A stretch of DNA of 64,000 nucleotides from Psammoneis japonica (taxonomy: Eukaryota): assembly GCA_008632985.1 (NCBI GenBank), contig QPGO01000218.1, forward strand, positions 1-64,000, in the 5' to 3' direction. Positions 27,401 through 62,100 of this stretch are shown here, one piece after another; position 1 is the first letter of the stretch; the number at the start of each line of letters is the position of its first letter. The notes beneath the pieces were generated by a model, which saw only the letters and a program-made list of their open reading frames with translations, was not told where the DNA came from and did not search any database. Both the position numbers and the translations under genes were made by a program.

Positions 27401-28946
27401 ATGCTGTTGGAGCAAGTGGCTGCATGTTGCAGATTCAGCAGGAGCTGGGAGGGCCAGGATTTCCACGGAAAACACAGATCTTTGCATTTGCAACTCCAAA
27501 CTGCTTCTTCTCTTTGTCATGGGGCATTGGAGTGAGAAGTGAAAAGGAAATGGGCAATGCAGCAGATGTGTGCTCCAGCCCCAGGCAGGACTCTGTGTGA
27601 CATGAGCCTGCAAAGTTCCACACTGTGGCCAGTGGATGCACTCATCATTCCAGCAAAGCCACACAGAAATGTGTGGGCAACATGCGGCACATGGCAAAAA
27701 AACATCAATGTCACAGCTCAGCAGCATGAGGCCCCACCTGGCTGGAGCTGGAGTGCATCAGCAGAAGAGGAATGTTTTTGGTGCACTCAACAGAAAACTT
27801 GTCACTTCAGTGGCTGTGAAAATTGAGTGCCAAGAGTGACTTCATCTTAGCTGGGGGCAAAGAACAAACACACAAGCTCCAAAAAACGAAAAAAGTGGCT
27901 GTGTGGCCACCATCTTTTGTGCAGAAAAGACAACACATCAAAACCACGTTGTTTGGCACATCAAACTCCTCTTCAATTTGTCATTTTTTTAAATTGCATG
28001 GCAAGCTCACATGAAAAATGCAAAGTTTTGTGCACACTCACATCTTGACTTTGTAAAAATCAAAAACTGAAGGAGCCAAACACAAATGGGCCATTTGATG
28101 GATTGTGTGCTGTCCAAGTGTGTCGCCTGCTGGAGCTGGAGCCAGCCCTTTGCTCTCTTTGCTCATGAGGCAGCAAGCCAGAAATGGCACCATTGGTCAA
28201 AGTGCTGTTGGGCACAACAAAGCAGAAGAATGTGAAATTGAGAGAGTCAACAAGATTGAGAAGGTGTTGTTGTTCTGTGATCTTTTGTCTTTGTCATTGC
28301 AGCAAGTGTTGCTGCTCATTGACACTTAAAAGATCTTGATCCTTGAAAGAGCTCCAGCAGTTTTTTCATGAAGTGCCAGGCCTCTGATGGTTTTTGTCCA
28401 GACCTCAGACCTTGCAAGTCATGATGGGCGTGCAGAGCAGCAGCCGCACCCTGGTCTTTGTTCCTGTTTTGAACAAACAGAGTGAGCAAAACAAGCCTCC
28501 CACTGGGGTGGCACTGACCACTGCTCAGCATGCTCCATGCCACATTGTTGCGCTGCACACAGGGTTGAGCACAGGGTGCATGTGAGCCACTGACACATTG
28601 GTGCACATGACCAAAGCACATCTCCGGTGGTCAAAGTGCGCCACTGATGTCCAATGCTGTGCACATTGTTCATGAACAAAGGATGGTGAAACATCGTTGC
28701 TGACAGCACAAAGTCTCATCTTTTTTGCAGCAGAGTCACTGCGCAAGTTCCCAACCACACCAGAACTCTCAATGAGTTGATGCAAGATCTCTTAAACTTA
28801 GACCTCGTGTCTGCTTGTCTGCTAGTCCGATCCCCGCCGCGCCGCACTTGTGTCGAAGTGGGTGGGTTTCGATTGCGACATGGCTGGCACAATGGCGCAC
28901 GGCACGATTGTGAACGTTGCCTTCGTGGAATGCATCCTTCTTGGAC

Positions 28947-33367: not shown

Positions 33368-36300
33368 TCACACTTCCGTCATGTCTTCTTGGTCAGTGAG
33401 CTGATTCATCATATCTGCCACACTGTATTTGATATTGCTAAACATGCGACGAAAATGAACCTCAAGCGCCGTGTAGTCTCCATGAGGCTGTTGCAAGTTG
33501 TTGTGGGCAACGAGGCATAGCTGACCAAGGGAGACAATCCGATCTTTCAGTTCATTGCGCCTAGCAATACTTTGATCATCTCGGAAACCTTTCTGCTTCG
33601 ACACAAGCATTTCATAGACACCTTTGTCCAGAGGAACTCCGATGTCATCGTCTTCGGAAGCGGGAGGGAGTTTTAACTGAAGCTTGTCCTTTTCTGCCTG
33701 GTCGACATTAAGGTTTTCGATCAATTCTTTTTGGTCGCGCAAAACCTTCTCGGTTTCTAGCCACAAAGCCTTTGCATCGTCGCTCAGGCTCTTACTTCCG
33801 TCAGGAGGCTGAGTAATTCGAAGGAGTTCCTGTAGACTCTCGTCACCTTCTTTTGCAGGCACGCGATCTACAACATGTAACAACACCGAAAGAAAATCAT
33901 TCTGGGTCGCGTCACTTTCTTTGAAGCTCTTCGTCTTGTTGTAACAGAAGCGGATGTACAATTGATCGAGTACCGCACGGAGATGAACCGCCTCGGGAAG
34001 CGTGTCGTGCATTTCCCAAACCATACTGAGCACGTTGTGATCCATCGCAAGAGTCATATCCTCGTGTACATATCCGAGACCCTTGATGACTTCAGTAGAC
34101 AGCCCAAGATACTCGTCGGAAACTTTACCAGCGCAGAAATCATGCAACGGCGTACTGGTCATCCACTGCATCATTTCTTCAGTGACGGTGGGGTGGCAAT
34201 GCTGAGCGCGCTGCATCTTGCGAAGCGCAGTCGCAAACGGAGTTGTTTTACCTTCCGGCTCGTGGATGAAGTGCTTCGTATCCGTAGGATCGTTGGACGC
34301 TGCCAGTGCCTCTTGCAACGCAATCAAGGGATAGCGAGGTTCTTTGCCAGTGACCTGGCTGATTTGTCCAAGCATAAGGTTTTCGATGTACGGCCACTCC
34401 ATTCCGAGATAAATGATGTTACCCTGAACGTCCATTCCTCGGCGACCAGCGCGACCCTGCATCTGTTGTGCAATGAGCGGGGTAAGAGCATCTCCCATAT
34501 CTCCGCAGAAAATGCACGACCGAAAAGGCATGTTGACACCATACGCGAGAGCAGAGTCCGAAAAGACAACAGCAAGACGGCCTTTCTGTGCAAGCATTTG
34601 CACTTGACGACGGTAGCAAGAGAAACCAACTTCGTTCGTGTAAATTGCAATCCCACGACGCAATCCTCGAATAAGCGCGTGGTTGATATCAACCCGTTCA
34701 CCCGACTTCTTCATGTCGGCGATGATATCCTCTACCTCGTTATAGTTGAGGCGCTTTCCTGCCGGAGACAAGACATATTTATCGTGAGGTTTTGTGGTGT
34801 CTTCCTGAATAAGCGAGTCATCGGTGAATCCTGATTTCGCATCCTCTTCGGCTTCAGCAGCGTTTTCACGGTTAGCTTTTCCCGCTGCCACTTTCCGCAT
34901 CGCCGCCTTCTCACGGGCCACTTTCATGAGGTCCTTCCTGTAGGTGGGAAATTCGGCCACTTGTTCGCTCTCCAGACGATGAAGTAGCGTTTTAAACATA
35001 TTAAACGCGCCATAAGTGTTGAGCTGGAAAGCCACGGCGGGAAGAAGGTCACTGGATTTCAGTTGGCCCACCACGCCGTAGAGAATGTCGCTCACGTCTT
35101 CTTTCGCGGTCAAAGGCGGCGGAACCTGTGCCACGCGAAGCCTTTCGTAGAGATCAGGGTGCAACTGTGAGAGCGTTGCGAGACGTGCCTTAAGGTGATT
35201 CTCGTATTCTTTCGTTTGATTCAATGTGATGCGTTTGCTTTCGTCGACATACTGGTTGAAAAAATTGTCTGGATCATCCAAATCCTCCAAAGCAGTAGAC
35301 GGAAAGATCGACCTCATCCTCTTCCACAAATCCATCATGTCGGTCGGAGTCATGGAGAGCGCCGCCACCAAGTCCGCCTGATCGCGGAGCCTTTCGGGGG
35401 TCATTGCCGCGACGGGATGAAGCTTGACAAGCTTATGCCTAGTTTTACCATCCTTTCCCTCCGACTCTGTCACCACGTAGCGCTGGAGGTTGATAAATCT
35501 CGCAAAATGTTCCTTCAGGACAACTTCTTCCGCTTTCTCCGGCGCGTCAACAATAGTGGCAATGTGTTCGTTTTGGACGGACTTAAACCAATCCCTAAGC
35601 TGCGTCGCGTTGCCAATGGTGGCACTAAGAGCAAGGCTTGGGCAGTTGCACGATTTGATGATCCTCTGCAGAGCATCGCCCTCAGGACCGTTCAGCGTGT
35701 GAACCTCGTCCAGGACCAAATAGTCGAACTGGCTGTATCCGCCATCCAAAATCATAAATTCCCTCTCTCCTTTGGTCATTTCCTGCCCAGCACACCCACG
35801 AACTTTGCTAAGGCTCTTTTCAAGAGCTCGAGGGGTTCCAATATACACCTGGGCGTCCCCGGTGACTTCCTGAAACGTGATTTGGTCAGTGCAAATGGTA
35901 ACGTTGCCTTTAAAGAACTGATAATACGTCGCAGCGATCTGCCAAACCAGAACTTCACTTGGAAGCACAAAGAGTACCGTCCCATTCGCGTTCTTACACG
36001 TGTAGGTACTTAGAAGAGTTTTCCCGGATGAAGTGGGCGCGCAAACGACCGCAGATTCGCGGTTGTCTATCGCTTCCAGGATAGCGCACTGCCACTCTTC
36101 GAGCTGGAACTTTCTGTTGTATCGACTAAGGGGAGGTAGCCTGTCGGGCATCTCGGTCAATTGAAAAGAGATGAGATTTGACTTGCCCCCCATTAGCTTG
36201 CGTGCATACTTGAGAGAATCCTTGTACGATCCACGGCTATCCCCGCCTTCCTTGAATAGAGATTTTAGCGCCTGGGCGTCCGGAGACAGTGCAATCTTCT

Positions 36301-37326
36301 CCTTTTTCTCATCCGAGCTCCCTTTCTTGTCTTTTTTAGACTTCTTGGAATCCTTCTCCTTCTTATCTTTTTTCGAACTCTTCTTCTCGTCCTTATCTTT
36401 TTTCTTTGCGGCTTTTTCAAGAGCAAGCTCTGTATCCGCCTTTTTAAAGGAAGGCATTTCTTCCAATGCCCAAAGGATATCTAACACCTCCGATTCGCTC
36501 GAATTGACTGAACCTAGCCGGAGATCACACACGGCTAGATGAAGCATCTTGATCATGCGGTTAATCTTGCCACCATCGGTTTCACACGTAGCGTCTTGAA
36601 GAGCCTTCAGCGTCTTCAGGTTCGAGAGTTTCTGGAGATCACGTAGCTGGTCCTTCTTATCCTGCTCCGCTGCGTTCGACTCCCGAATGGTATCGGCGGT
36701 CGATTTCTTCTTTTCTGCCGACTTTTTGCCCTTTTTTGTGGGCTTCTCGGAAGTTTTCACAAGCTCTTTAGCTTCTTGTTTTGCAGAACTGCGACGCTCT
36801 TGCTCTTCTTCCCACTTTTCCGCAGGGTCGAAGATAGATCCGGCAGGTGGAGCCATATCACGGAGAATCAACGGAATCGACGACTTCTGCTTGGTGACAA
36901 TGATTGCCTTGCGCGCATCTTTATCGAACGACTAGAGACAACGAAAGAAGTCAGATACGAAGTAGTAGTTTCAATTTCATAGCCATGAGCCATGAACAAC
37001 AGGCACAGGAAGATTCCAAGATTTACAGAGTGCCACAATGCTGTTCAGAGTCGACGGCAAGGCGAAAACACTTGAACCACTCGTTGATCCATACAAAACA
37101 CGCGTATGTAGAATCCTACCTTGGCAATACCGTCTTTGTACATGAGCGACGCTCTGTCGACCCAAAAGACATCGAAGGTTCTCGTCTTGAAGATGAGCTC
37201 CTGGTCCGAAACAGGAGCTTCAGCCGCATTGGCGGCGGCCGCCGAAGCGGCCTGCGTCGAAGTTACTTGGTTGTTAGCATTGGCGCCGGCGGCGTTCGCC
37301 TTTTGCGGTGCAGGAACGAAAGACAT
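33368..37326 (-). CDS. Ski2-like DExH RNA helicase, DDX60-like, 2 exons
   Basis: APTSSGKT, DEVH, LSATIGN, LRRGIAIY, LAYGVNMPFRS, QMQGRAGRRG. The upstream exon MSFVPAPQK...DGIAK (ATG 37326) splices near 37118 to about 36933. Confidence 0.88.
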
Positions 37327-40300
37327 GCACTGGTTTCTCTTCGCTTTGTTTTTGTTGTGTCTGTGCTTTATTTGATCGATCGTGTGGGTGGAAATCTTCA
37401 CACGACCTGGGCGCCACTGAACATACCGTTTTTCTTCCGAATTGTATAAAAGTAAATTCAATCATTGTTAGTACTTCGTGTACGTGGGTTTCCACGGGTT
37501 ACGGTAGTCATACAGACCAGAACTAACTTACTGTTCGTTCGTTCGTGCATGTCATGTCATTCCACCTCAACCACACAGGACCACACCGCCCGGCAGTGGC
37601 ACTGAATGTGCACTCGAGTGTGTTCCTCTGTTGGCAGCTCTAGAGAGTAGAGACACAGTCTAGCACTGCCATGTTTAGTGCACTGCCTGCTGGTGCTCTC
37701 CCTCCTCTAAGAGAGAGTCTCTCTGTGCTGCAGAGCAAAGCTCAAAACTTCTTTTTTGCACACACACACACACACACACACGCACCAGACAATGCCACAC
37801 ACAAAAGGCAGGGGGGGGGCAGCCAGCCAAGCCTCTGGAGGACTCTCCACTCTTGTGGTGGCAAAAGGGACCTTGCCTTTGACTTGACATTGCCTGAACA
37901 CTGCACCAGTGAAGGCAAACGCACACTTTTCTCATGCTGGTGCGGCAGAGTCTGTGCTCTGTGTGTGTTGTTGGCTGCCAAGATGAGCTGTCAGAGCAGA
38001 AAAGTGACTTCTGCCTCTCTTGGCTGGAGCTCAGAACCAACGTTGACTGTGCCAATCTTTTGAAAAAAAAAATGGATGTGGGGTGCTCTTCTCTGTGATT
38101 TTTCATTGACACACGGAGCTGAGCACCGCTGTCACCCCCATGGTTTGCTCTCACTCACTCACACTTGCAGTCACAAGAGCTTGACTGCATGCTCATGACC
38201 ACCCAAAGCTGCTTTTTTCACTGGCATCCAACCATTTTTGTCCTTGAAACTTGCAACATGTTTTCTTGTCTTTTTGGATGAATTTTTGCAGATTCTCCAA
38301 GTCTTCTTTTTTCTCTTTTTGTTGTGTGGAGGGATGACAGGGTGTCAGCAAAGCCCATGTCATGAGTGCCTCAGGCTTGGACCAGCTGTGATCAAGTTGT
38401 GGCTGGAGAGCAGAAGACAAATGCAACAAGAGCGAGAAAAACATGAGACTGCAATGTGACCTCCATTTTTCTGGTTGCATGACAGCACACTCTTTGTCTG
38501 GCATGACGAAAGTTTCTCCAACATGTCTTTTCAGCTGAGCTTTTTCAACAACAAAGGAAGGAAGAAAGGGCATTGTTGGTCAACCTCATGTTTGCTGGCC
38601 CTGCGGCCACTTTGTTGCTTCTTCATGCTTCACATGCACACAATTGTCAGCATCTTTCAACTTGGAGTTGCAACACAAAGAGCAACTCTTTGGCTTGAAA
38701 TGCACAAAGACATCAGCCATGGGCTGTCCTTTGAGAGGGGGTGGATGACCCATGGCAAAAGAACAAACACTCAAGTCAGAAGGTGGAACGAAAATTTGGA
38801 ATTGCTCGCTGCTGCTGGGGGGTTTTGAATGAACAGGACACCAGCTGTGATGACAAGACTTTTGTTGACTCACCATGGATCACACTGTGCACACATGTGA
38901 GATTTGCACAGGAGCATCAGCAGGCTGCTGACCCACCCTGAGAGCTGGGCTGTGCACTTTGCCACCATGTGGCCACAAACTTCAAGAGGCCAGGGACTCA
39001 TCAAGATCCTTGGCAACATTGATGATGGTGGCACTGCTCACAGCAAGGGGGGTGATCATCTGCATGTGGAGCAAGAGTTGCTCCCTTGCACCCAGATTTT
39101 TCAAGGAGAGCACTCTGTCAGCTCTTGGTGCCTGTCCATTTTTGGGTTGTCTCTCTCTTGCTGCATCCACCACCACCACCTGGCAGTCCATGGTGTCCTG
39201 TGCTTTGCCATGTCCCCAATTCTCAACCTGTGCCTTGTTGTGTTTTTCATCTCAAATTTTCTTGGTGAGCTGAAGCACACTGTCAGAAGCCTTTGTCTTC
39301 TTGTGCCTGACAGCTGTGCAGTTTTGCATTGAAGCTGGCTGTTGCAAGGACATGGCAATGTGGTTGCACTCACTCCTCACACAGCAAATCTTTCCAAAAT
39401 TGCCCAAACAGCCCTTGATCATGTGACATCATCACAAAACTTTTGGCCATTTTCCAAGGGCCACACCACCTGTTGTCATTGGTGCTGTTGACTTGAGGCA
39501 CATTCATTGCAGGGTCTGCACTGTGTGGCAAAAAATGCAGTTGTTGCTGACCTGCTTTGCAAGTGGTGAATTGGACAAGACTCATCAACCCCAGAGTTGA
39601 CAGGTGTGCTTTTCTCTCTGTGGAAATCAGGCTCTGCCCCAGCTTTCAAGTTTCTGTCTTTTATGGCAAAACCAGTCAACACAACAACTTGTGTCTCTGT
39701 CAACATGCTCTAACCCAGCTTTTGCATCTTCCTTTTTCCATCAAACCAAAAAAGTGATGCAGTTCCCAGACAAAGCAAAAGAGTGAAACAAACAGCATTG
39801 TGTCCACAAGGTGTCATGATGGTGGGAAACAGGACCAGTCACAGTCAAGACCTTTTGTTTTTGCATTGTGTGGCAAGATCATTCTTTCATTCCTGCTTCC
39901 TGCAGCTGGCAGCACAGCAGCTGGCTCCAATGATGGCTGTGCTTCAGATTTTTCTCAATGGCTTTCTGCAAAAATGCATGAATTTGCACACACACATGGT
40001 GTTGATCCAACACACACTGATTTGATTCCAAAGTGATGCATGTGTTGGAGTTTTGGGCAGACTGGCATGATGCCTGTGCCCAGGCAATTTTCAGGTTGCA
40101 GCCAGCCCTGATGTCAAAATGACATGCAGATGTTCACACAAAACTCAACAACAATGACAAGGAAGGGTTCAGTGCCCTTTTTTGTTGTTTGAGCCTTGTG
40201 CACTGTGGTTGCAAGGCTTTCCTTGAGTGAGAAGGGGCACATCATGTGACAAGCAGGTGTGCTGACTGGGCTCCTTTCAAATGAACCCAGGCTGCAAACA

Positions 40301-43079
40301 AACACTCATGTGATGTCAGTTAGAGTCAACAGTCACAGCATCAAACTTTTGCACTCTCAGCTTGGTGCATGTGGGTGTGAGAACAAAAAAATGATTGCTT
40401 GCAACAGCACAAAGTTGCTGTGGTTTGGCAGATGTTTTGCATGTGTGATTTTTGCCAGCCACAACCACACATTTCTTTGTTGTTTCTGCAGCACAAATGG
40501 TGTCTGTTTGTTCCAGTGCTGAATGGCAGCTCTGGTGGCAGCAATGATGTTGTCATGGGTCATCAAGGGCACTGTGTTCAGTGCTGCTGAACAAAAAGAT
40601 GACATTCACTTGTTCCTTCTCTCTGGCACAGTCACCTTCAAAGGCACCCGATGCACATTGGCCACACTGGGTCAGCTGTTTTTGACAGCATGACATGGGC
40701 TGGTGTGCTCATGATCTTTTTTGTCACGAGGATTCTTCCAATTGAAATGATGACAATGAGCAAAAGATGCGGAGGCATTGCTTTCATCAACCGCATGCTG
40801 CAGATTGCACATGGTCCCCCCCCCATCCAGTCAATCCAGAGTGCACAGGCACTGATCATTTGAAAAATTCAACTGTGGCTTTGAGCACACAGCAGCTCTG
40901 GCTGAGGATGATGCCAACACTCTGGAGACTTGTCAAGTGGTGTGGTTGCCACTGCCAACACAAGAAACAATGATGGTGGGCCACCTTGTCACATCTGCTC
41001 AATTCTTGCATGCACACCAACCATGCTGACAGAAATGCATCATCCTGGAGCAAAATGGTGCCAGCCTTGCATGCAGATTGAGGCTGCTTTGAAAACAGAG
41101 GAGGTCCTCAGCAAGACTCACAGCTGCTTGCAGCTTCTGCTGGTGCAGCTGCCTTTCTCATCACTTCACATGTGCAAGCACTGTGGTGGCTTGTTGCACC
41201 TTCTGTGTCTTGGTGCCACCATGCTTGCAGACATTGAGCCAAAAGGGCATCACAGACAATGATGGTGGCTGCTGCTGCTGTTCTGTTTCTGGGGATGAGC
41301 AGTCATGGTCACCAAGGTCAGGGCACCTGCACTCTTTTCTCAAGTGGTGCGTTGCTCAACAGCTGTGCAACAAAAATGATTGTCCCACTTGTTGTGCCAA
41401 GTTTTTTGTGTGGATGACATCAAATGAGGAGCACCCAAGCAGCAATGCTGCACTCCATTATGAACACAAGATTGCCGCCATTGTTTTTCTGGAAAAGTCA
41501 CTCTGTGCAGCACAGCTGCTGCCTCTGCATGTGAAATGATTCCAGGCCAAGCCCAAAGAACTGCACATCACCTGCATTTGCACAGCCTTGTTTCCTTGTC
41601 ATTTGTTTGCAATGCTTTGTGCTGCCAGCCACTGCAGTTCTTCAACCTTGGTGTGCAGCCACACAGCACCAGGACACTGCTGGGCTTCCTCCATGTGTGG
41701 CAGGCATCACTGCTGCAGCCACTGATGATGCCACTTTTCCTGCACATCTGCAGGCTGTTTGCAGTGATGCTGCTGATCCCACAGAAGCATGCATTGGAAA
41801 ACACAACTCCTCCTGGTGTGAGACCCACAATGGGCTGCAGGAGCTCCACATGACCACAACCAGTGCAACTGGCCATCATGCAAGTGACTTGCCTTGCATG
41901 AAGGGGCTGTGCAGGATCCATGCAGCACTGAGCATGACTGATTCCATGCAAGCACTCAATCTGCATGCCCTGCTGTGCTCTCATGTGTGAACACCACACA
42001 CCACCAACACCACACTTGTGCAGCAAATGCTTTCCAGCCTTGCAATCTCTTGGTGGCTTGGCACCATGACATTGTTTTGTTGGTGTGTTGACACACTTGA
42101 TGGCCTTGCCAAATGGTGGCCAAGCACTCTTGTGTTCCTTGCAGAACAACCTGCGTGCATCTTTTTTTCAAAGCTGTGTGCAACCAGAGACATCTTGTTT
42201 TGTGGAAGACTCAGGTCCAGCGATGATGCTGTCACAACTGCTCAGTGTGGTCAAAGCATTTCTGCTTTCATCCGTGCAGTCAGCAAAGATGGTGATTGCA
42301 CTGCAATCTGAAATGATCAGTTCAAGCATGCCAGATTTCAGATGCCCCACCACATGCATCATGCTGAGCTGGTGTTTGCTCCACAAAAGCACACAATGTG
42401 ACATTTTCAATTTGTTGCTTGCACTTAACATTTTCAAACATGAACACAAATGTGTGAGAGAAAATGGATGTTGTGTGCTGTGGTTGCAGCACTGCAGTCA
42501 TGGCGCCAGTGCAAACAAGACAAAAGGTCTCAAAAATCATGTGTTCAGCATTGCACAGTCATGTGTTGTTTTTCTGGCAAGCACCAACAACACCCTGACC
42601 ACCAAACCCCTGAGTTCACAAAACTCAAAACTCCCTCCACTCCACCCCCTGGCCCACCATGGAGTGCAGCTTCTTTCTGGCGTCTCTCTTGCTCTCTCCC
42701 ATGCTGCTTTCAACTGTCTCTCTCCTCCTGCAACAACCCTCACTTTCACCTTTGTCTGCGCACTCTCTTCCAGCACTTTGCCTCTGCCCTTGCCTCCAAC
42801 TCACCATCCTCCTCCCCACCTGTCTGCTCTTGTCAAGTCAATGATGCTGTCTGGCCCAGCTTGCCCTCTCTGCCAGACTTGCAGTCAACAACGCATCATT
42901 GCCACTGCCCTTGCTGATGCTCCTTCTGACATTCACTCAAGCTGCTCTTCCCTCCCTCCCATCTTCTCTTGCCAGTGTCCTGCTCCACTCCTTTTCCGGC
43001 AGCTTTGCCATCACCTGCCTTGCCTCTGACAAATGCACCACAGCAGCTCAGTGCAAGCTGCACCTTCCCATCCTCCCTC

Positions 43080-43410
43080 CCCACATGCCTCATCAATGCT
43101 CTGTGCCCCAGTGGTTCACCACCCTTGATGCCTTTGGGGACCATGCCTTTGCCTGCAAAGGAGGTGATCCAAGTTGTCCTCCAAAGGTGATCATGATGCT
43201 GTCTTCATGAGATCATGTCACACAAACTCCAGGGGTGCCTCTTGCAAAATCACGTCACTCACCCAATGACATCCACCTTGAGCCTGCACACCTTCTCCTG
43301 AATCACCCTCTTCTCCACCCAGCCGATGTTGACATTGGCACCCCTCCTCTCACTTCCCTTGCCACCCCCTCCCACCATCATTGCATTGCTGGTGATGTCG
43401 GCCCATCCCC
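43080..43410 (+). mobile_element. Remnant of a restriction-like endonuclease domain of a CRE/NeSL-type non-LTR retrotransposon
   Basis: LDAFGDHAFACK followed by HLEPAHLL..LLHPADV (compare RPAD) and IAGDV. Confidence 0.55.
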
Positions 43411-43422
43411 AAAGCCCCCCCC

Positions 43423-43437
43423 NNNNNNNNNNNNNNN
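43423..43437. other. Assembly gap (15 N)
   Basis: Run of N after a poly-C tract. Confidence 0.99.
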
Positions 43438-44554
43438 CCTGGTCTGCCTGCCCCTTCTTCTCTGGTCTTAACTGGGGCACACCATGCAAGTGCAAGGTCA
43501 AAGTTTCTTGGCCCCTCCTCTGCTTCCTCCACTGATGGCTCCCTTGCTGTTCAGTCTCTCAATTGTGGTGCATCAGAGGTGGGCTCCATGTGGGTTTTGC
43601 ATTGGTCCATTGTGTTTCTGTTCCTTGAATGTGGGGTGACCCTCATTCAATGCAACAAACCTGCACTGTTTCCACACCAGCACCCTGCATGACTCCAGCA
43701 GGGCCTGCATGACTCATGCAACATGGTCAAATTTAATTGAAACTTCCTGGATTTAATTTGTCTTTTGCACGAAACAGACACGGCATTTTTCCAATTTCTC
43801 CAGGGGGCATTGTCCCCACACATTCTCTGCATGGATGCCCCACTCACATTCACCTGCTCTTTTTAGGCAATGCTGTTTTTTTGTGCCATTTGCCACCTCT
43901 TTTTTTTCCTGCAGTGATGCCATTTTCCAATGACTGCAAAAATTTCAACCTGCAGCTCTAATTGTGTGTTAATGTCCCATCCAACACACAAGTTTGTTTG
44001 CTCAAAAATTTTGTTTTGTTCAGTTAAATTGCCAAAATGAAATTCTGTTCACCGCAAATTCACTTTTTTGGAATCAGCATCACTTCATTTGGTGACAGGA
44101 ACAACACATCTCCACCCACTTGCCACACCATGGGTCACTGTTCCTTCCACTCCAGCAATTCAAAGGCAAAAAGGGGTTGCTGCCACTCTTGTCTGTTGAA
44201 GAAGCAGCATCTGAATGCAGCCAAAAGTGGGGAAGGGAAGTTGCTGGGTCAAGAACTGTCTTCACCAGTTCATGGTTTTGTGGTGCTGCATCATGGGGAT
44301 GGCATCAGAGACATCTGTCATGCTGCCAAGGGTTCTCAATCCCATGGCCCCTGTGTTTGTGGGGGGCACACCAGTCAGTTGTTTTGTGCTGTTTGATGGC
44401 TTTTCCAATGTTGCTGCCAGGGTTATCCCATGCCCCCCATTTTCCAAAGGGCATGCAGTGATGTCCATGGGGACGCTCCCTGCAATGATTTTGTCAGCAT
44501 GCGCCCCCAGCTCCCTCATCACTTTGGTGGCACCATGCCCCACTTTGCGGCCTT

Positions 44555-45877
44555 TTGCAAGTGGCGCAGCTTTTGAAGGACACCCCATTCTTGGCATGGA
44601 CAATGGTTCACATTCGCTGCCATGGGGCCAATGCCATCGCTCCAGATTGGGGTGTTTTGAACGAGATTCTCCACACCCAGCAGGCTCTGATGCAACTGTC
44701 GGATACAGCAGATCTCGCTCTACCTCCTGTGCGTTGGGTAAAAGGACACCAAGACAGGCAATCTCCCGTTCACTCATTGCTGTTAAATGCTAGAGTCAAC
44801 ATCTGAGCGGACAAATTGGCAGGGGCTTGCCAAGGACATTGCCTGCACGACACGAATCAGGTCAAGCACCCACCACATTGCCACTCGCATTTGGAGATCG
44901 ACGGAGGTGCCATCACGACGAATTACAAGAAACAGATTCGGCACGCAGCTGCTGCTCCTGAATTGATGGAATGTGTTGTCGAACGAAACAAATGGGATCC
45001 TTCAGTGGTCGACCTGGTCGATTGGAACGCTCACGCGGTTCTGGTGAAACGTCATTCGCAACAGCACGTTAACACAGTCAAACTGGTCCATGACTTGCTG
45101 CCGACCAACAAGATTGCAAATTGATGCAATCCAGTTCGACCGCACCAATGCATTGCATGTGAGCATCCGATGGAGGACAGGGACCACATGCTTCGGTGTC
45201 CAAATGACGAACAGTGGAGAAGGAAGTTCCTGCAGGGTCTCCGACGTTGCTGCAACAAGATCGACACCATGCCCACTCTCCGTGACTTCCTGCTGGACAT
45301 GCTTCAAGCCTGGTTTAATGAAGAACTGACGTGTCTTGACAACGTGGACTGCCGATGCAAGGAACTGTGGCGAGCTCAATCGGACATTGGATGGAGACAG
45401 GTTTTCAACGGCAGACACTCGCACATGTGGAATCTTTTACAATCCGGACACCTGCCCGATTCTGGCATCTTGCGACAACGTCAGGAAGAACACAAACAGC
45501 CACCGGATTGGATGGTTCAGATGGGGTCTTTCACATGGAGAAACTGGTGGGAACTTTGGGAGGAGCACAACAAGTTAGTTCATGGACACGATGTTGATTC
45601 TTGGAAATCATCTCAACGGAGAAACGCAGAAGCCGAGCTGACGGCGACACACAACAAACGACAAGAATGCCTGGCGAAGGACAGAGGTGTGTCATTGGAT
45701 TCAGTTGAAGAACACCTGTCATTTTCGACAACGAGGATCCAAAACTGGATCTCTGTGGTCCGTCCAAGACTTAAAGACAGCCTGAAAGAAGCCAAACGAC
45801 TGGCAAAAAGCGGCACTTGCGCCATTTGCAGCTGTCTCCGTCGGGCGCCCTCTAATGGGGGCGCCGAAACCGGCTAA
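44555..45877 (+). mobile_element. 3' part of a non-LTR retrotransposon ORF (RNase H end plus C-terminal Zn-knuckle region), interrupted by two TGA stops
   Basis: A single frame runs across ORFs 44555, 44816 and 45170: WVKGHQD...NI*ADKLA, VDW, KLVHDLLPT, CIAC..EDRDHMLRCP, QSDIGWRQVFNGR, LWEEHNKLVHG. Confidence 0.8.
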
Positions 45878-48019
45878 TTGCACTGTGTTTCTGCCGCATC
45901 CTCTGTGGGGTGCACTGGAAGTGTGGGCTGGCCGGCGCCGGTGTTGCTGGGCAAAGGTGCAATGGCACTTAAAATTGGGGTTTGTTTTTTTTGGCATGGA
46001 CAATGGTTGTGACACATCATCCCGTGGTTTTGGAGACAGTGTCAATGTCAGATTTTTTGTTTCCATGGACTGTTTGACAGGCTCTGCTGCAGTTCATCCT
46101 GTGTCTCCCCTCCTTGTTGGTGACAAATCCAGTCTGTTCACCCCAGGTTTCCCCTGTGTCTTTGCCTCCTGCTGCTTCAGCACCTGAAGTGTCATCATCA
46201 CTCCAGACCCCTTGCAATCCTGTCACTGTCCAAGCATTGATTGGCATTCCCACAATGGTTGCAACACAAACAATCAAGTGTGGTGCACCACAGCTCAGAA
46301 CTTCCCAACAGTGCCATGCGATTTCCTCTTGCAGGCACTTGGCAGTTGCTTGCTGTCCCATGGTTGGTTCCCAGGTGCACAAAGAGCCCAAACCAAGAAG
46401 TGAGCTGGAAGAGCATTGTCACACTTTGCAAGCTGGGGCAGGCCAGCTGCGTGCATTGGATCCACATCACTTGCACTCACTTTGTTCTGCCTGATCTTGA
46501 CAGGGGTCAGGCATCCATTCATGTTGGCCGGAAACATTGTCATTGCATGATGGTGCACTTGGACATGCGCAGAGCTGTTGTCCAATTTTGTTGCAACGGC
46601 AACATGAAATTTGATTTCTGTCTTCCAAACCAGAGTCACTGCAATGACAGCCTTCACATTGCCAATGAGGGCCACCCTGTCCTTGATTGACTGGGTTTTA
46701 AGGCCATGTCCAAGAAAGCCAGCAAAACTCCCACTGCTTGTTCTTCCTTTGTTGGCACTCTTCAGCAGTTGCTGGGCATGTGCAAGGACCATGACGGCAC
46801 TTCTGGTCAATGCATGGATGGGGAGGAAGAATTCCTGCAATGGTGTGTTCACTGGCCATGTCCACCCTGTGGACAATCCTGTTGTGCATTCTGCATTTGT
46901 TGGAGTTTCCAACTGCACCAAGCAAGATCAAGATGGTCCTTGGTTTTCCCCGGGAGAAGTTTTGTTTTTAACCACAATGGCCCATCTGACATCAATGCCA
47001 AGAAAGGCAATGAAATGACTGCTGGCTGTTGTGTCCCTTTGCTGCACATGGCCAACACCAACCTCAACCCTTGGCAATGCCAGGGTGCCTCAATGGACAG
47101 CTGTGATGGGATCGGAGAATGAGTCAATGAACTGATGTGGTGTTGCGGGGGGAGATTCAAGTCAAGACTTACATTTGCAGGGTGATCCAAACAACAAGCC
47201 ACCCCAACAAGAGGTTGATTTAAGTGGCTGCACACTGTTCTTGACAAGGAAAGGATCAGTGCTGTGAGAAGCAATCTCAAGCAAGAAAGAGCAATGGCCA
47301 GGCTGGAAAATGTTGCTCAGGGAACAATCTGAGATGTCATTGTGCAGCAGCTTTTTTCATTGCACAAAAGTGGACACCAAAGCACGTTGTGAAATGTCAT
47401 CACTTTTGCAAACACAGTGCATTCTTTTTGGTGGGGACCACCACAAAAACTTTGTGGTGAGGGGAGAGGGCAGGCAGATGGCTCAAATGGTTGGAGCACA
47501 TGGACTGCATGCATGACAGACATGCATCACCATCATGTGATCCTTTGAACCTGCAAAATGTTCAGATGCATTCAACCAATCAGAGCTTGTTCCAGAAATT
47601 TGAACAAATGGTGCAGATGCAGGAATGTGTGGGAACACGTGCATGTGCAGGCAGGCACATCAGCACAACATTGTTGAGCCTGGCACTTGATGATTTGCAA
47701 TGCCCCCCCATGAACAAATGTCACTTTTTCACAAAAGAGTCAAAATGCACACTCCACCATGCCATCTCTGATGGCAGTGAATGCCCTGCACCAAAGCCCG
47801 CAGTTGCATGAGGAGAGAGACAACTGGGCAAGATGAGGAGTGATTTCAACAGACTTGCCAAAGTTGTGGCTCATTGTTGTTGCAGGTGCAGGGACAAGAA
47901 GTGTTGGCTCAGACACAGAACAATGCTCCAGCAACAACCATGACACAACAAGGCAGTTGATTGGTTGTCATGGGTGGGACTCTCACCATCATGTCCTGCG
48001 TGGGCCTGGAAGATGACAT

Positions 48020-48820
48020 CACAAGTGAGAAAAGAAAGAAGAAGCAACACAGCAACAAAATGAATGACAGGGACAAGATCATTTTGGAGAACTGCTGCAA
48101 CAACACCTTGTTTAGACAGCACAAGTTTCTAAATGACAAAGTCCTCAACAACAGGAATGGCAGGGTTGCAAAGATGGTGCTCCTGTCCAAAATCAATGTG
48201 CCCCAAGAAATCAGAGCATGATTTTGGGAAATGTTGAAGGTCGAGGCACAAAGGCAGATGACAACAAAGAGGGACAACACCAGCAGGGAACCAAAGAAAG
48301 AGTTCTTTCATGAGTGCTGCATCAAAATGGAGTTTGCAACACATGGGGTGCTGGAAGACTGCTGACACACATTGCTTGGTGTTTTGCGAGTGCACAGGGC
48401 ACATGGATCACAAGAAGAGAAACACACAAGCAGAAAACAATGCCAAGATGCCATCTCTGGATGAGATGCTAAAGAGGAGAGACAACATAAAAGCCCACAG
48501 CTGTTTCACCCTGCACTTCCTGTCAGTGGCGGTGAGAAAAACAAAGTGGAAGAATCAGCTCAAATCAAGATGTTGCTTGAGCAGGTTGCCATCTGCGAGC
48601 GATGCGGCATTCAGCCTGCTGGTTTTGGAGAAAAAGAGGAACAAGTGTGGACACACGTGCATGGCAAAACAAAGGAAGAGTTGAAAGAGGCTAAAAAGGA
48701 GGGGCTCATTTCAGAGGCAAAACACAGCAATGGGAACGGTGGTCAAGCAAAAAGGAATCAGGGATGGAACAAGGACAGGTGTGCAAAGAATTGGGAAAAA
48801 AGATTCATGAGCAGAGATTG
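48020..48820 (+). pseudogene. Degenerate repeat-associated ORF
   Basis: LFRQHKFL..FW, FLSVAV..KW..SASDAAFSLLVLE..W, QGWN resemble a motif I recall from diatom repeat-borne ORFs (SDEAFxLLxLEN). It is broken by stops and frameshifts. Confidence 0.4.
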
Positions 48821-49847
48821 AGCAAGGACACAGATGAGTGTGACGAAGTTCAGAGTCAAAGGAGCTCCAGGAGTGCATGAATGGGGTGGAAGAGACTCAA
48901 GAAAACAATGGCAATCAGTTGCAAACGGGCAACAAAATGATGACAATGTCATCAAAAACATGGATTTTTGGTTCCTGGAGACACAGCAACAGGCAGCTCT
49001 TTTCAGTTGACATTTGGCAACCATTTGCAAAAATGAAAACAGACAGAATTGACAACAGACAGACAGACCAGGTGGATTAAAAAGGAAACAAACAAACCAA
49101 AGATGCGCTGATGGAGGGCACATGAAAAATGCAACAGCACCAGAATTGTTCATGCAGTGGGACAAAATGGGGGCAAGTCGTTGACCTTCATTGTGGGTGC
49201 AGCAGCACCCAAATTGTCAATGAAGCACACCAAATGCAATGAGCTCAGAACCTGCTGCATGGAAAATTTAAGATGGACCCACATCGCTCAATTGCCCCCC
49301 CCCCCCAGTTAAATTGCTCCCACGATGCGGGTTTGCCCCCTTTCCTTTGCCATCGAACACCACTTGGGCGGTGGCCTCGTTTTCTTTTTTCATCATTTTT
49401 TCTTCAGCCCTTCTTTTCCCACTTTCTGGAACATTCGCCTTCCAACACTTGCATCATGCCGTCTGCCCCAGTGCTCCCCTCCGCTGACTAACTTTTTGAT
49501 TTACGCCAAATCACTGCTGACCACTTCGGCAGCACTCATCACTCTTCACTCTTCTCCCCCCTCCCAATGGGCCACACAGACCCTTGGCCACAACATTGTT
49601 CACCATTTCACTGCTCACACTCTCCTTTTTCTCTCCACTGTAGAGGGCCCTGCCCTGGTGCATCAGACTCTTCTTCCCAGATGATGATTCCGTCGTTGAA
49701 ACGCCATGCGCGCTGTCTCGCGCGTCCTTCCTTTGTCCCCGCTCCCGCCAAAAACTCAAAACGAAAACGGGCATGGGCCGGCTGACACCTGCATATCGTT
49801 TGACCACAACACAGATAGAAGTGAATCCGACAAGGGATAAAATAGAC

Positions 49848-55994: not shown

Positions 55995-57513
55995 TCATCG
56001 ATTCCTCTTCAGGGTTCGCAAAAAGTCCGGAATCTCCCCTGGCTCTTCCTTGGGTGCTGCTGGCGGTGGTGCCTTTTTCTTTTGTGGTGCGGCAGGTTTG
56101 GTAGCCACCGCTGCTTCAGGAACCTTTCTGCCGCCTCCACCTCCATCCATGAGTGGCACCACATCATTGAGAGCATTGCCGTTGGCTTTGGGTGTAGCAA
56201 CATCCTTGGCTGTCTGATACTGTCCCGTGGTTTCTTCTGAGGAGAATCCCGTGGCCAATACCGTAATTGAAATGGAATCTTCCAAGGTGTCGTCCGTGAG
56301 AGCTCCAAAAATCACATTGGCATCCTTGTCGACCGTATCGTAAATGAGCTTGGCTGCGGCGTTGACCTGTGCCAGAGCGAGATTTCTACCGCCACTGACA
56401 TTGAATACAACTCCTTGTGCATTATCAATGGTTGAGTCTAACAAAGGACTCGAAATGGCAGCAGCTGCCGCGTCCGCTGCAGCAGTCTTGCCCGTTCCAA
56501 TGCCAATTCCTGTAGCAAATAATAGTGTAGGAAGTATGTGAGATGCATGGAGTGAGACACGGAACGATGGTATGATTAGAATTCCAATCAATGACTGACT
56601 CACCCATGAGAGCGGTTCCGGCATTGCTCATGACTGTCCTTACATCGGCGAAATCGACATTGATCAATCCTGGCTTGATGATAATGTCAGAAATGCCCAC
56701 AACACCTTGTCTCAGGATATCGTCGGCAACAGAGAATGCCCTTTCCATGGGAGTATCGTCCGGAATAATCTCGAGCAATCGGTCGTTGGACACAACAATG
56801 ACAGTATCGACGTGTTGTCTCAATTCTTCAATCGCCGCCCTCGCCTGCCTCATGCGTCTCTTCCCCTCAAACGAGAACGGCTTTGTCACAATTCCTACAG
56901 TCAGACACCCCGTCTCCTTGGATACCTCTGCTACAACGGGCGCCGCTCCAGATCCAGTTCCGCCTCCCATACCACTCGTCACAAAACACAAATCCGTCCC
57001 CTTGACCATGGCTGCAATCTCCTTTCGACTCTCCTCTGCCGCCATGCGTCCCACTTCAGGATTTCCACCTGCGCCCAACCCACGAGTGACAGACGCACCA
57101 ATGTTGAGTACTTTGGCTCCTCTTGCCTTGCTTCGTCCCAGAGCCTGGGCGTCCGTGTTGAGTGCCCAAAAGTCTACTCCGCCGACGGCCGTGTCCAGCA
57201 TGCGATCTACCGCGTTGCACCCACCGCCGCCCACGCCAATCACCTTGATTACGCACGGACTCATTCCTCCGTCGGGCATTATGGCTCCGTCCGGTGTGCT
57301 ATGGAGCGGCGGTGTGGAGGAAGGGCGAATACCGGTAAACTGCCAATGAGATGGGGGCTTCCAATCGGATATGGATGATGAGGATGACGACGACATGAGC
57401 GACATGGAGGTGCGACGAGGAATTACAGACGACCGTGTCACGACATAGGCGCTGCTGCTGCTGGCCAGCAACGACACTATCGATATGCTTGTTCTCAATA
57501 CTTCTTTCCACAT
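55995..57513 (-). CDS. ftsZ: Plastid division protein FtsZ, 2 exons
   Basis: Signal plus Ser-rich transit peptide (SSSA-YV). [44 protein letters not shown] and C-terminal IPDFL core. Intron at about 56512-56601. Confidence 0.96.
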
Positions 57514-58024
57514 TTTACACTTCTCAACACTGGAAACAACAACCACACAGGAACGATACAGTAACAAGCAGCAATCTTCCAACGCTTTGGGTGTTGCCAC
57601 AAAACAAGAGAAGAAAATCAGCAATGCGCTCAGATCGCTCGCCGACAGAAAAAAAATGATGGGTCGTTTGAAATCTACGACAAACATCGTATGTAGAAAA
57701 TGTACTAAATAGCCGTTAGATCAAAAGATACCCGGAAATCAATAGTTCCACTTGGAGTGCGTACAGTCTTTACATACGTGGTTTCTACGAAAGATGCAGT
57801 ACTTACCGTCTGTCCATTGCTGCTCGAAAAAACACAACACAACACGACGCATCACGCATCACACTGCTTTGAACTTGAAACTCACTGTTGTTCCGATTGA
57901 CACTGATCATACTGTACATCATAGCAACGTCTTTACAACCTGGATCCCTTTGACTGTAGCTCTCGAATCAATAAGAAACCTCAATACGTCCCATCCTTTT
58001 CAGTTCTTACACTTGATTCAAAGA

Positions 58025-59149: not shown

Positions 59150-62100
59150 GTACGCACTCTTCGTTTCATTATCAGGACCGTGCCCTTGCTCGAATATCCG
59201 CTTTCATAACTGAAACTGCAGTGTGGATGTGGTGCGAATGCATACGTACTTGTAGAGAAGAGAGGTCAATAACTCACGTTGAAATTGCAAGTTCAGATTG
59301 GATTTGGCCAACACATTGACGTCTTCTCGGGTAGGAAACAAAGTTGCTCGTGTGTCTTGCATTCGAGATAGTCCCAGAAAACTTCAAAGATTGTGGACCA
59401 CCTTATTTCCAGTACTCTTGGGGGTCGCACAGCCAGTTCTAGCTACGCCAAGTCGGCCGCTGGTGAAAATGGCAAGTTTTGTAGGACGGCTGACCAGGTA
59501 GGGAGTCACTTGCTGCGTATTCACCATCGCCAAGGACCGCGGCGGCGAGTTACTCCTTCCGACAATATTCTTCTACTTGTTGCCCTGGCTAAGGTATTCC
59601 TTTCCCTGATACAATCGGCTTACGTCCGGTTGGTACCGCCGAACGAGCCTCGGGCAATTGTTGACGTTTCTGGAGACGAAAATGGTCAATGCCGCGAACC
59701 AACTGTCTGCCCAAAAGATTCGTCAATAATGTATATATACTACTACATCAAGCTTATTGCATTTGCTGTCGACAGGAGCTTGCTTTCGAAACATGCATGG
59801 GAGGCGTTACTTGCACCTCTAGATATCGTGTATGTGGTGGTTGTGTCAATCGGATGCTCGCCTCTTGTACAGCTTGCTCTATGGTCCGAAAGCCACACTC
59901 ACATCAACAGAGGAACCAGCTTTTCAATGTTTCGTTTTTAACTTGAAGGCCATCGCAACAATCTAATTGATAATTCAACAACGGATGATGAAGTTTGGTT
60001 TCATTTGCGGCTGATTACTATAGGAGGGGATGCTCTGCCTCTTATCAACAAACTAAACTACAATAACCACCTTTTCTTTGTTTTTGCATCGGTGGCAATC
60101 CTGAGAGATGATTCGCAGCCAATGACTGAGCGGGGTCCCTTGAGGCCGCGTGTCACCGCCACAGCCTTCAACGTTTTCTTGAGGACAAGTTCGCAACCCG
60201 ATGAAATCGTTTTGACAGGGCCTGGCTGGAGTGCAAAATTAGAACTGTGCTTGGTAGTTGTGCATGCTCACGACTGGAAACGAGACATGTCTAAAGCACC
60301 GTTCAACTCTTTTGTGATGGTTGTCATTGGAAAGTACGCTCCCATTTCCTCAGCTCGAAGAATTGTGGCCACAGTGCCAAAGCAGTTGTGTGACGGTTGG
60401 TTGGGGTGCATCTCATGGCAAGTTGAGCTGAGAGTGCTTGCAAAGACACAAAAATGGAAGGAATGTTGATTCCCACTTCCAGCAGTGACAAGCCAGACTT
60501 TTAAAACAAAAGCAAGGCAAGGTGCAGAAACACGCAACAATCATGAGACATGGGCTCCATGTTGCACTCAGTTTTTGGAGCGCCCCATCTGTCCAATCCA
60601 TGAAAGGGTCAGATTGGGGTTCTTAGCCATGGGCAAGAAGGCCACATTTTTTCTCCAGCTGGGCAAAGAACCTTTGTGCATTCCCACGGAGCTCCATGCA
60701 ATGGGTACAATGGCCAAGATCTGCTCCTGGTTGTTGTCTGCAGGAGAGCGTGTGCACCCAATCTTGAGCTGCAACACTTTGAGAGCTTTCGCAGACAATG
60801 TAAAAAGCAGATGCTGTGCTTTTGCAGACCTGTCATGTCTTGATGAACGTTCTTGTTGTTGCAGCCCTGGCACAGCTTGATGCAAAAGTTGGAGAGGCAC
60901 AGGAGAGACTTGGTTTGAAGTTGTGGCTCAGCCACTGTTCAAGTCACTCATGTTGCTCTGCAAAAAGTCTCCTGTTTGACCCAAAAACTCCCAAAACCAT
61001 TTGAGAGTTGCAAGAAAAATGATTTTTGTTCTTGCTCACAAAAGGCTTCACTTTAAGAGCCCCCAATCTTTGTGTTTTCAAGCTGTGCCACCCAAGTGTT
61101 TTTTCTGGAGTTGTGTGTTGATTTGAAGTGACTCCAAAGTCTTCACAAAATCTGTGCTTGATTGCCCCAAACAGCCTCCCAGCTGCAGTGTCTGTGCAAT
61201 GTCAACTGCTCATGATGCTTGCATTGTGCCTCACTGCATTTGTCAACCAACATGACCATCTTGGCCAAGTCAACTGGGTGGGCTTGGTCATCTGGGGGAA
61301 AACAACTTCAAGTCCAAAGATGGCCACTGGAGTGGTTGCTCTGAGCATCACAGATGGCAAATGTGTTGCCCGATTTGTCCTTGAACAAAGTCTCTCAGCA
61401 AGATTTTTAAAAGTGAGCTGGAGGTGCAGCAAGCTCACTTGAGCTGCAGCACAGATTTGCAGCCTGGCCTGACATGTCACACACACACGTGCTTTGCATG
61501 CTGCTTTGGCCTTTCTGGGGCTTTTGTTCCATGGGACACCCCCCGGGTGTTGAGAACTTTGTCACAGTTGATTGTGTGCCAACTTGACAAGGTGATTTGG
61601 AGAACTCAGTGTGAAATTTTTACAAGCTTTGTCTTTGCCAAAGCCATCACATGGCCAATGTTGCACTTGCCCATCTCATCATTTTTGTCTGGCATCTCAC
61701 CCACCCCTTTGGTTTGAGTTGTTTTGGGGCTTGTTCAAAGAAAAGCCTCTTGGGTTTCAAATTTTTGTCACATGCAGCTGAAAGTTTGGTTCCCAGCTTG
61801 GGTGACAGGACCATCATGATGTGCCCCAGCATGCTCTGCATTGTTGTGTGAGCAACAGCTCCTAGAATCAAATGCAGCCTTTGAGTCAGAAAGCTCTTTC
61901 ACATCATGGTGTCTCTTCTGTGCACACACATGTGGGCCAGTGGCTTGACATCACTTGAATCTTGTTGAGACAAAGAGCTTGTGCAATCATGGGTGCTCTG
62001 ACAAAAAATGCACAAGCTTCCACCCCAGCAGCACCAGAGAACATGCTGGGGTTTCTGCAAGCAGAGCTGGGGGACAGCCGGGCACAGAGACGGTGTCGCA

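Follow-up and report, generated by a model that had tools for sequence, protein, structure and literature searches.

The closest described counterpart of the phenomenon analyzed here is the TpA hypermutation seen in mutation-accumulation lines of the chlorarachniophyte Bigelowiella natans, where it strikes integrated DNA of giant viruses and virophages (Mettrop et al. 2026, bioRxiv 10.64898/2026.01.13.699255). According to the main text of this preprint, of the 231 de novo mutations recorded in two integrated viral regions, 230 were A>G or T>C, the GC-biased mutations all fell at TpA, at a rate of about 6e-7 per site per generation, clusters of TpA-poor, CpA- and TpG-rich windows were detected genome-wide, and an ADAT2-like protein was put forward as the candidate enzyme. 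The words “CpG,” “trinucleotide,” and “diatom” never occur in that main text, and the supplementary tables may hold context data. We analyzed the first 64,000 nucleotides of contig QPGO01000218.1 (assembly GCA_008632985.1) of the diatom Psammoneis japonica, hereafter the window, focusing on a Tyr-poor reading frame at positions 44555–45877 of the forward strand. This frame is the tail of a dead, 5′-truncated, multi-copy non-LTR (LTR, long terminal repeat) retrotransposon [long interspersed nuclear element (LINE)], probably of the endonuclease type, in the nuclear genome. The mutational process recorded in this element and its surroundings is of the same kind as that in B. natans, in an unrelated lineage, a kind already described in 2026.

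Three features of the B. natans type are found in the window: near-exclusive TpA events, a high relative rate, and sparing of host genes. Both cases involve A>G or T>C changes that convert TpA to TpG or CpA, are confined to foreign DNA, exceed background by orders of magnitude, and are patchy or episodic; in addition, the main text of the preprint notes that reverse transcriptase and endonuclease domains are overrepresented among TpA-poor coding sequences of B. natans. The differences concern the host, which is a diatom (Stramenopila) here rather than a member of Rhizaria, the targets, here intergenic blocks in their entirety as well as a LINE and an LTR element, and the extent of depletion, with a TA observed/expected (o/e) ratio of 0.06–0.13 compared to 0.45 given there for a viral region. 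Furthermore, the old blocks in the window have also lost CpG, and a dependence on the flanking bases is visible (ATAN mutated far more than TTAA). The closest classical analogue is repeat-induced point mutation (RIP) of ascomycete fungi, which operates in the opposite direction. Like RIP, the process consists of dinucleotide-specific transitions at the DNA level that cause missense changes across mobile elements and leave genes untouched, but RIP converts CpA to TpA, raising TpA and AT content and creating stop codons, whereas here TpA is destroyed, GC increases, and TAA and TAG are removed. The RIP signature is accordingly absent from the window, where TpA is down to 0.06–0.13 and CpA and TpG are up to 1.7–1.9. 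APOBEC3 and ADAR of animals also restrict retroelements by hypermutation, and ADAR shares the preference for a 5′ U/T; the substrates of these enzymes, however, are single-stranded cDNA or double-stranded RNA, and their marks are left on one strand, before integration or in its course, in contrast to the action on both strands of integrated DNA observed here.

The frame comprises 441 codons, among them a single Tyr codon (TAC, 44924–44926), 18 Cys codons, and 28 His codons, and contains 70 CpG and 13 TpA dinucleotides. The initial annotation of this DNA, made from the sequence alone, had reported a frame of about 440 codons with one Tyr and plentiful CpG, and both statements hold. In the interval 44489–45877, the o/e ratio is 0.16 for TpA and 0.77 for CpG, compared to 0.04–0.10 and 0.11–0.12, respectively, in the DNA flanking the LINE frame. 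For the complete LINE insert (44609–45990), the corresponding values are 0.18 and 0.78, and the two expected products are balanced between the strands (TG 1.53, CA 1.44). The first 18 codons of the frame (44555–44608) belong to the flank and the target-site duplication, outside the element, and are open only because TA-free DNA holds few stops. The decayed frame of the element itself (44609–45877, plus strand) consists of 422 codons, with the single Tyr, two internal TGA stops (44804–44806 and 45122–45124), and a terminal TAA (45875–45877). The probability of finding no more than one Tyr in 421 codons at the 2.7% Tyr of the homologs is 1.3e-4. The sole surviving Tyr codon, in a column where Tyr is the most common residue (39% of the homologs), is embedded in TTAC, a poorly mutable context, and 11 of the 14 TpA remaining in the LINE copy are TTAN or NTAA.

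When TpA is converted to TpG or CpA, a TAY codon becomes TGY (Cys) or CAY (His). The initial annotation presented the loss of Tyr as independent support for the direction of mutation; this loss is instead the codon-level face of the TpA loss, and polarity is added only by alignment with homologs. We aligned the window protein to the homologous stretch of 153 proteins and defined consensus columns as those in which at least 40% of the homologs share a residue. The homologs contain 3.0 ± 0.82% Tyr (minimum 0.77%, n = 153), whereas the window protein, at 0.24%, falls below all of them; its Cys content (4.3%) is the third highest, compared to 1.9 ± 0.69% in the homologs. The window protein retains the consensus residue in 105 of the 167 consensus columns, but in none of the seven with Tyr, compared to 105 of the 160 others (Fisher p = 7.8e-4). 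The seven Tyr columns are occupied by Cys (four), His (two), and Val (one), and Cys or His is the replacement in six of these seven versus 4 among the 55 remaining replaced columns (p = 2e-5). Both strands were struck, as attested by the four Tyr>Cys and two Tyr>His changes, and both Tyr>His codons have A directly 5′.

The four Tyr>Cys changes are located at 44828–44830 (TGC, in AGACQ; Tyr in 49% of the homologs), 44972–44974 (in LMECV; 62%), 45125–45127 (codon 213; 45%), and 45356–45358 (the second Cys of VDCRCKEL; 46%), and Cys is found in 0%, 1%, 1%, and 1% of the homologs at these columns. The two Tyr>His changes are located at 45449–45451 (in LQSGHL; Tyr 45%, His 32%) and 45650–45652 (CAC, in ATHNK; Tyr 88%, His 7%), all six on the plus strand. 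The sites at codon 213 and in ATHNK were absent from the examples given previously. Among those examples, LMECV, AGACQ, and the second Cys of VDCRCKEL are supported as former Tyr sites and LQSGHL is plausible, given the high frequency of His in the homologs; support is lacking for RQECL, where Val (37%) outnumbers Tyr (11%), and for the first Cys of VDCRCKEL, where Pro is found in 22%. The general expectation that TAY would become TGY or CAY is borne out by six of the seven Tyr columns, and the opposite outcome, homologs that are themselves Tyr-poor with Cys or His at the same positions, was not observed.

Beyond Tyr, 37 of the 62 replaced columns are explicable by one nucleotide step, 19 of these by a transition. 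The 19 single-transition replacements include 10 of the TA>TG/CA type, 6 CG>TG/CA, and 3 others, with none in the TA- or CG-creating direction. The ten TA>TG/CA replacements consist of the six Tyr changes, three Thr>Ala at T|ACN, and one Ile (ATA)>Thr. Tabulation of TA-containing codons, suggested along with the original claims, shows depletion of most classes compared to the closest relatives (L002 and L003): TAY, 1 versus 12; ATA, 0 versus 3–5; GTA, 1 versus 1–5; CTA, 1 versus 7; and cross-codon T|A, 6 versus 22–27. The Leu codon TTA is the exception, being undepleted (3 versus 2).

An alignment-based scan of metagenome contigs identified 26 related loci, all distant (22–42% identity), which therefore provide no DNA-level polarization; an earlier search with a single protein for close relatives among these contigs yielded 36 pattern matches, none of which was confirmed. 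The TpA o/e ratio is ordinary (0.48–0.96) in 25 of the 26 loci. In the VTAB context, TpA occurs at 2.2 per kb in the window copy compared to 20–47 per kb in 16 of the 17 relatives tabulated, and the CpG density of the window copy (52.8 per kb) is the same as in the relatives. One distant LINE relative, on metagenome contig L010 (1424 nt; match at 18–1163), shows the same signature as the window although it comes from an unrelated metagenome: TA o/e is 0.10, CG 0.33, TG 2.09, and CA 1.38, cross-codon TpA is missing altogether, and Tyr accounts for 1.0% of the residues. The excess of TG over CA in this contig possibly reflects a strand bias there.

Comparison of the window LINE with other copies in the genome revealed 216 differing places, 162 of them transitions; the event counts that follow come from 40 displayed places, comprising 33 events. 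These include 7 adjacent double differences between CA and TG, 13 cases of CG versus TG/CA, 3 of TA versus TG/CA, and 10 others. A CA–TG pair implies that a TA or CG ancestor was altered independently in two lineages. At two places, the homologs indicate TA ancestors: Leu at 44871 fits a change of CTA to CCA here and to CTG in other copies, and Ile at 45385 fits a change of T|ATT to C|ATT here and to T|GTT elsewhere. With respect to stop codons, the TGA at 44804 corresponds to CGA in other genomic copies, the TGA at 45122 falls at a column with an Arg consensus (61%), and the terminal TAA corresponds to CAA in most other copies, as represented in contigs assembled de novo from the public sequencing run X1. 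Both internal TGA stops most likely arose by CGA>TGA, that is, by CpG decay. The suggestion that the TpA-directed process erases stops instead of creating them is thus in agreement with these copies.

Direction, specificity, speed, and action on integrated DNA are established more firmly by a second element than by the Tyr argument. The two repeats of an LTR retrotransposon are identical at integration. Self-comparison of the window identified an LTR-type element (15811–20538, minus strand) with 367-bp direct repeats (15811–16177 and 20172–20538), TG..CA ends, a 4-bp CTTT duplication, and a polypurine tract, AGGGAGGCGAA, that adjoins the LTR. The repeats differ at 30 positions, resolved into 23 events without a single transversion: 12 TA versus TG/CA, 7 paired TG–CA differences, and 4 transitions located 1–3 nt from a TA event and of the same strand polarity. 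The seven paired differences imply a TA ancestor struck independently in each repeat, and CG ancestors are excluded because no site has CG versus TG/CA, so that 19 of the 23 events map to TA-derived sites. All 20 shared CpGs are unchanged in both repeats (0 events in 40 site-copies), and no isolated changes are found in the 646 other site-copies. Loss per site-copy is therefore 26/44 for TA versus 0/40 for CpG (Fisher 3e-10), which translates into lower bounds on the TA rate of >12 times that of CpG and about 70–100 times that of other sites. Methylation-driven CpG decay yields the same TG and CA products and accounts for the CpG loss in the older blocks but cannot remove TpA, and this young LTR pair lost TA with CpG intact. 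The repeats were affected unequally (18 TA lost in one, 8 in the other); if half of the doubly struck sites are invisible, the counts fit independent events at about 0.86 and 0.52 per site. Long-range strand clustering was not seen in the heavily mutated LTR, where 11 events form 7 runs compared to about 6.5 expected.

The depletion extends over four blocks that fill intergenic spaces and together cover about 30 kb of the window: 10301–16900, 20401–29000, 37601–49800, and 60101–62600. The block that holds the LINE (37601–49800) has o/e ratios of 0.061 for TA, 0.218 for CG, 1.82 for TG, and 1.79 for CA; in the other three, TA is 0.08–0.13, CG 0.17–0.35, and TG/CA 1.7–1.9. In contrast, the genes between the blocks (2-kb bins) show TpA o/e of 0.46–0.71 and CpG near 1, with the exception of three short genic stretches where TpA drops to 0.25–0.29. 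Survival of TpA in depleted versus genic DNA depends strongly on the flanking bases: 0.02–0.04 for ATAN/NTAT, 0.09 for CTAC, 0.12 for GTAC, 0.13 for GTAA, 0.21 for CTAG, 0.31 for CTAA, and 0.92 for TTAA. The change of TA to TG or CA in the window thus affects both strands of integrated DNA, occurs independently in each copy, is context-dependent and regional, and is much faster than other mutation. Among 128 segments of 500 bp, TA and CG are both normal in 52 and both low in 48; 8 (three of them in the LINE) are low for TA with normal CG, and none is low for CG with normal TA. The simplest reading is that rapid TpA loss comes first and slow CpG loss follows.

We consider it quite probable that the Tyr codons of the LINE were lost through TpA>TpG/CpA mutation that acts on mobile and intergenic DNA after integration, a scheme within which we infer the order of events and the participation of a deaminase. 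Under this scheme, a new insertion would lose TpA first, which would be the state of the LINE copy and the LTR element; CpG would then be slowly lost, most simply through deamination of methylated cytosine, and the end state would be that of the blocks without TA and CG, which amount to about 30 kb of the window. The chemistry could be enzymatic conversion of adenine to inosine, read as G, at 5′-TA-3′ by a DNA-acting deaminase, and this putative enzyme might be directed to silenced or foreign chromatin, in which case it would serve genome defense by killing elements through missense changes without creating stops. Adenine deamination appears to be the only simple one-step route to the TG/CA products. 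For the broader proposition that diatoms carry a targeted DNA-editing defense, probably an adenine deaminase that acts at 5′-TA-3′, prefers ATAT over TTAA, and precedes CpG decay, we see the chances as even. As part of this same proposition, the defense would strike new retroelements before they accumulate one ordinary substitution in about 650 bp and would have rewritten nearly half of the 64-kb region.

Several observations weigh against this interpretation or parts of it. Among the 40 displayed places, only 45472 has TA in other copies versus TG here, and two show the reverse. Because TA is rarely kept in other copies, these are TA-poor too, and some of the TA loss in the window copy may predate its insertion. 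In addition, a 395-nt contig of high summed depth has TG where the window retains TA, so that copies already mutated may still have multiplied. The argument from Tyr involves seven consensus columns only, the homologs are about 30% identical, and the ancestral codons are reconstructed, not observed. Adenine deamination is advanced on the grounds of chemistry and of the proposal made in the B. natans preprint, and any enzyme would be a candidate only. Anticodon loops that ADAT2/3 edit commonly contain TAA, the poorest context, which does not speak for the ADAT2-like candidate. A rule predicting from the flanking bases which base of TpA changes was tried and rejected, as it fits four and fails three of the informative LTR events, and our claim on flanking bases is accordingly limited to susceptibility at the tetranucleotide level. 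The coding identity of the LTR element depends on a sub-threshold Pfam match, with an empty homolog search, and a stretch of about 1 kb inside that element (16841–17870) retains normal TpA, which the scheme does not account for. Finally, no sequencing technology is recorded for either the assembly or run X1.

Of the explanations that dispense with a dedicated enzyme or defense, a slow, context-dependent bias of mutation or repair in methylated, silent chromatin would account for the loss of CpG in the blocks, as expected of methylated heterochromatin, and for single-copy flanks being depleted as much as repeats, and no enzyme was found in the window by a Pfam scan of its open reading frames. 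The LTR pair, with 26/44 TA struck versus 0/40 CpG and no isolated changes elsewhere, is far too selective and too fast for ordinary decay, and such a bias would not readily produce the sharp differences in intensity over short distances, namely, 18 versus 8 TA lost per LTR and the spared 1-kb stretch. Moreover, the B. natans process was active in some lines only, according to the main text of the preprint (10.64898/2026.01.13.699255). We therefore regard a passive bias as unlikely. A thymine-centered chemistry, in which a modified thymine, such as 5-hydroxymethyluracil, is mispaired or mis-repaired to give T>C at TpA, would suit the effect of the base that precedes T (A > G > C >> T), and thymine hydroxylation at TpA does occur in dinoflagellates. 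However, T>C requires amination, which, to our knowledge, is performed by no DNA enzyme, whereas one hydrolysis suffices for A>I>G; mini-clusters seen in the LTRs are equally readable as A>G runs on one strand, and a literature search for hydroxymethyluracil in diatoms found nothing relevant. This chemistry thus seems slightly less likely still than a passive bias.

Three further alternatives are poorly supported. Editing of the element RNA by an ADAR-like A>I activity before integration, fixed by reverse transcription, gains some credence from the strand bias hinted at by the TG and CA values of L010 and from the preference of ADARs for a 5′ U and their hyper-editing of repeat RNA, as stated in the main text of the preprint (10.64898/2026.01.13.699255). 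The one-strand, pre-integration signature expected of such editing is nevertheless absent from the window: the sense strand of the LINE shows changes in both directions, with TG close to CA, the flanks outside the element are depleted too, and the LTRs, identical at integration, now differ almost only at TA-derived sites. We consider RNA editing highly improbable. Somewhat lower yet is the probability of an artifact in which modified bases at TA and CG are mis-called by a long-read base-caller as random TG or CA. Symmetric methylated motifs do give two-product miscalls in unpolished nanopore assemblies, and the technology behind the assembly is not documented, but short de novo X1 contigs of depth about 65 reproduce the TA-free flanks of the LINE, one without any difference over 425 nt and another with 1 over 537 nt, although X1 is possibly the assembly's own data. 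The X1 contigs also show TG/CA variation between copies, L010 carries the same signature, and the B. natans process was measured with Illumina data, as described in the main text of the preprint (10.64898/2026.01.13.699255). That the family is natively Tyr-poor and TA-avoiding, for example, through selection on RNA, would fit the lack of TA in other copies of the genome at the places visible. This explanation is refuted by the homolog comparison and can be given almost no weight: all 153 homologs are richer in Tyr, TpA is ordinary in 25 of the 26 related loci, conserved Tyr columns have been replaced, two stops interrupt the frame, and the non-coding flanks are depleted as well.

Post-integration mutation at TpA, the reading that we prefer, has several implications. 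Removal of TpA mirrors fungal RIP and opposes the common mutational bias from GC to AT, and the only published description that we found is the 2026 preprint on one rhizarian alga. Our literature search detected no diatom for which depletion or hypermutation of TpA had been reported, and term searches within two papers on diatom transposons (PMC2806351 and 10.1101/2025.10.24.684338) gave no match to either phenomenon in the text covered. Its occurrence in a diatom, on a LINE, an LTR element, and intergenic blocks, indicates that the process is neither a one-species peculiarity nor confined to viral inserts. The flanking-base rule, with ATAN almost erased and TTAA spared, is a constraint for any candidate enzyme, and the relative timing of TpA and CpG loss is of potential use for dating insertions. 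For annotation, the blocks call for caution: being nearly devoid of TAA and TAG, they generate many long spurious open reading frames, and element proteins are distorted (Tyr to Cys or His, Ile to Thr or Met, Thr to Ala) and, accordingly, difficult to recognize. If diatoms do carry a targeted defense of this kind, then, together with the chlorarachniophyte case, TpA editing would be a widespread defense of algae of the SAR (Stramenopila, Alveolata, and Rhizaria) assemblage, similar to RIP but opposite in direction, and the enzyme and its targeting could be identified in diatoms, which are transformable and editable.

The identity and borders of the LINE copy are supported by homologs, sequencing depth, and the target duplication. 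The 5′-truncated copy, including its 3′ untranslated end, spans 1382 bp (44609–45990, plus strand) and is bounded by an exact 18-bp target-site duplication, the left copy at 44591–44608, with no TA or CG inside, and the right copy at 45991–46008. This 18-mer occurs exactly twice within the window, and the contigs of other copies diverge at 45992. A poly(A) or simple-repeat tail was not found at the 3′ end; the insert ends with GGGGTTTGTTTTTT, a T-rich stretch, immediately before the duplication. Many LINE clades lack poly(A), and its absence does not exclude LINE membership. Summed depth of X1 contigs, which is not an exact copy number, rises from about 65 in the flanks to 745–4600 inside the LINE, with 16890 reached in the final bin ahead of the duplication. 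The step falls exactly between the duplicated 18-mers, and the climb toward the 3′ end is the pattern of a many-copy, 5′-truncated family. Within the 64-kb window, blastn and tblastn detected no further LINE copies. In one X1 contig, of depth 31.9 versus about 65 in the flanks, 44605 is followed directly by 46159, so that the LINE and about 150 nt more are missing. Considered as an empty-site allele, this joint is not the precise product of excision, given that no letters are shared at the joint and 1553 nt are skipped versus about 1400 expected; the contig may represent a second haplotype without the insertion, though not a precise empty site.

A database search with the translated frame retrieved three proteins (E = 2.4e-45 to 1.3e-30), and a profile built from these yielded 9371 matches, 717 with E <= 1e-30. 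Several relatives are 1900–2040 aa long and align by their last 400 residues with the query, which corresponds to the C-terminal 420 residues of the element polyprotein (the RNase H-like and zinc-finger part). In three long relatives, Pfam searches identified Exo_endo_phos, RVT_1, RVT_3, and zf-RVT with mostly weak scores, several below the cut-off: P0085 has all four, each below the curated cut-off, P0007 has Exo_endo_phos at 27.7 bits (cut-off 24.5), and P0010 has RVT_1 at 22.6 bits (cut-off 29.6). On these matches, the relatives resemble the RVT_3/zf-RVT LINEs whose architecture is described in Pfam; the differences are the T-rich rather than poly(A) end of the window copy and the weakness of the Pfam scores in the relatives. 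No Pfam family was matched by the window fragment itself, which preserves the GHQDR and ADxLA motifs and the invariant C..C..H..C. Because of the truncation, the copy lacks the reverse transcriptase and endonuclease domains and, with the former, any YxDD motif, the catalytic Tyr of which had been named among the possible targets.

Within the LTR element, the sequence between the repeats contains a weak RT_RNaseH match (24.5 bits; cut-off 24.8); a homolog search of the corresponding open reading frame against longer proteins found nothing, and no clear primer-binding site was seen. The stretch at 16841–17870 has 12–21 TpA per 200 bp compared to 0–7 elsewhere, a GC content of 0.36–0.39, and CpG o/e of 1.4–1.8; its left edge is sharp, whereas the transition on the right is gradual. 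Either the process spared this stretch or a younger piece is nested here. An intermediate state resembling that of the LINE copy, with TpA o/e of 0.11–0.29 and CpG of 0.7–0.9, is found at 18001–20000 and at 28501–29000.

In the depleted blocks, including 37601–49800, many open reading frames of 110–320 aa are present in all six frames, without a credible family, because TAA and TAG are almost absent. A Pfam scan of 150 open reading frames of at least 110 aa, and of 38 selected by eye from the 62 in the 15.7–20.9 kb region, gave nothing credible inside these blocks except the sub-threshold RT_RNaseH, and the sole match in 37601–49800 was DUF6549, below the cut-off and on the strand opposite to the LINE. 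The recognizable genes of the window are of ordinary composition and include YCF48 (1961–2914), aconitase X (AcnX; 4908–7469), a SNF2/RING/HIRAN helicase (7640–10101), a large DEAD-box helicase (33371–36931), and plastid-type FtsZ (55998–57720). Further genes encode a pseudouridine synthase and leucine-rich repeat (LRR) and ankyrin proteins, and the open reading frames are mostly long and uninterrupted. All FtsZ homologs listed under an organism name come from diatoms, in agreement with the lineage of the window; YCF48 matched cyanobacterial clusters only and was uninformative in this respect. The depleted block around the LINE copy contains an assembly gap of 15 N (43423–43437), 1.2 kb upstream of the element. 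A tandem array with a 189-bp period (21878–23335), inside a fully depleted block, consists of units that are about 75–82% identical and show many paired TG–CA differences.

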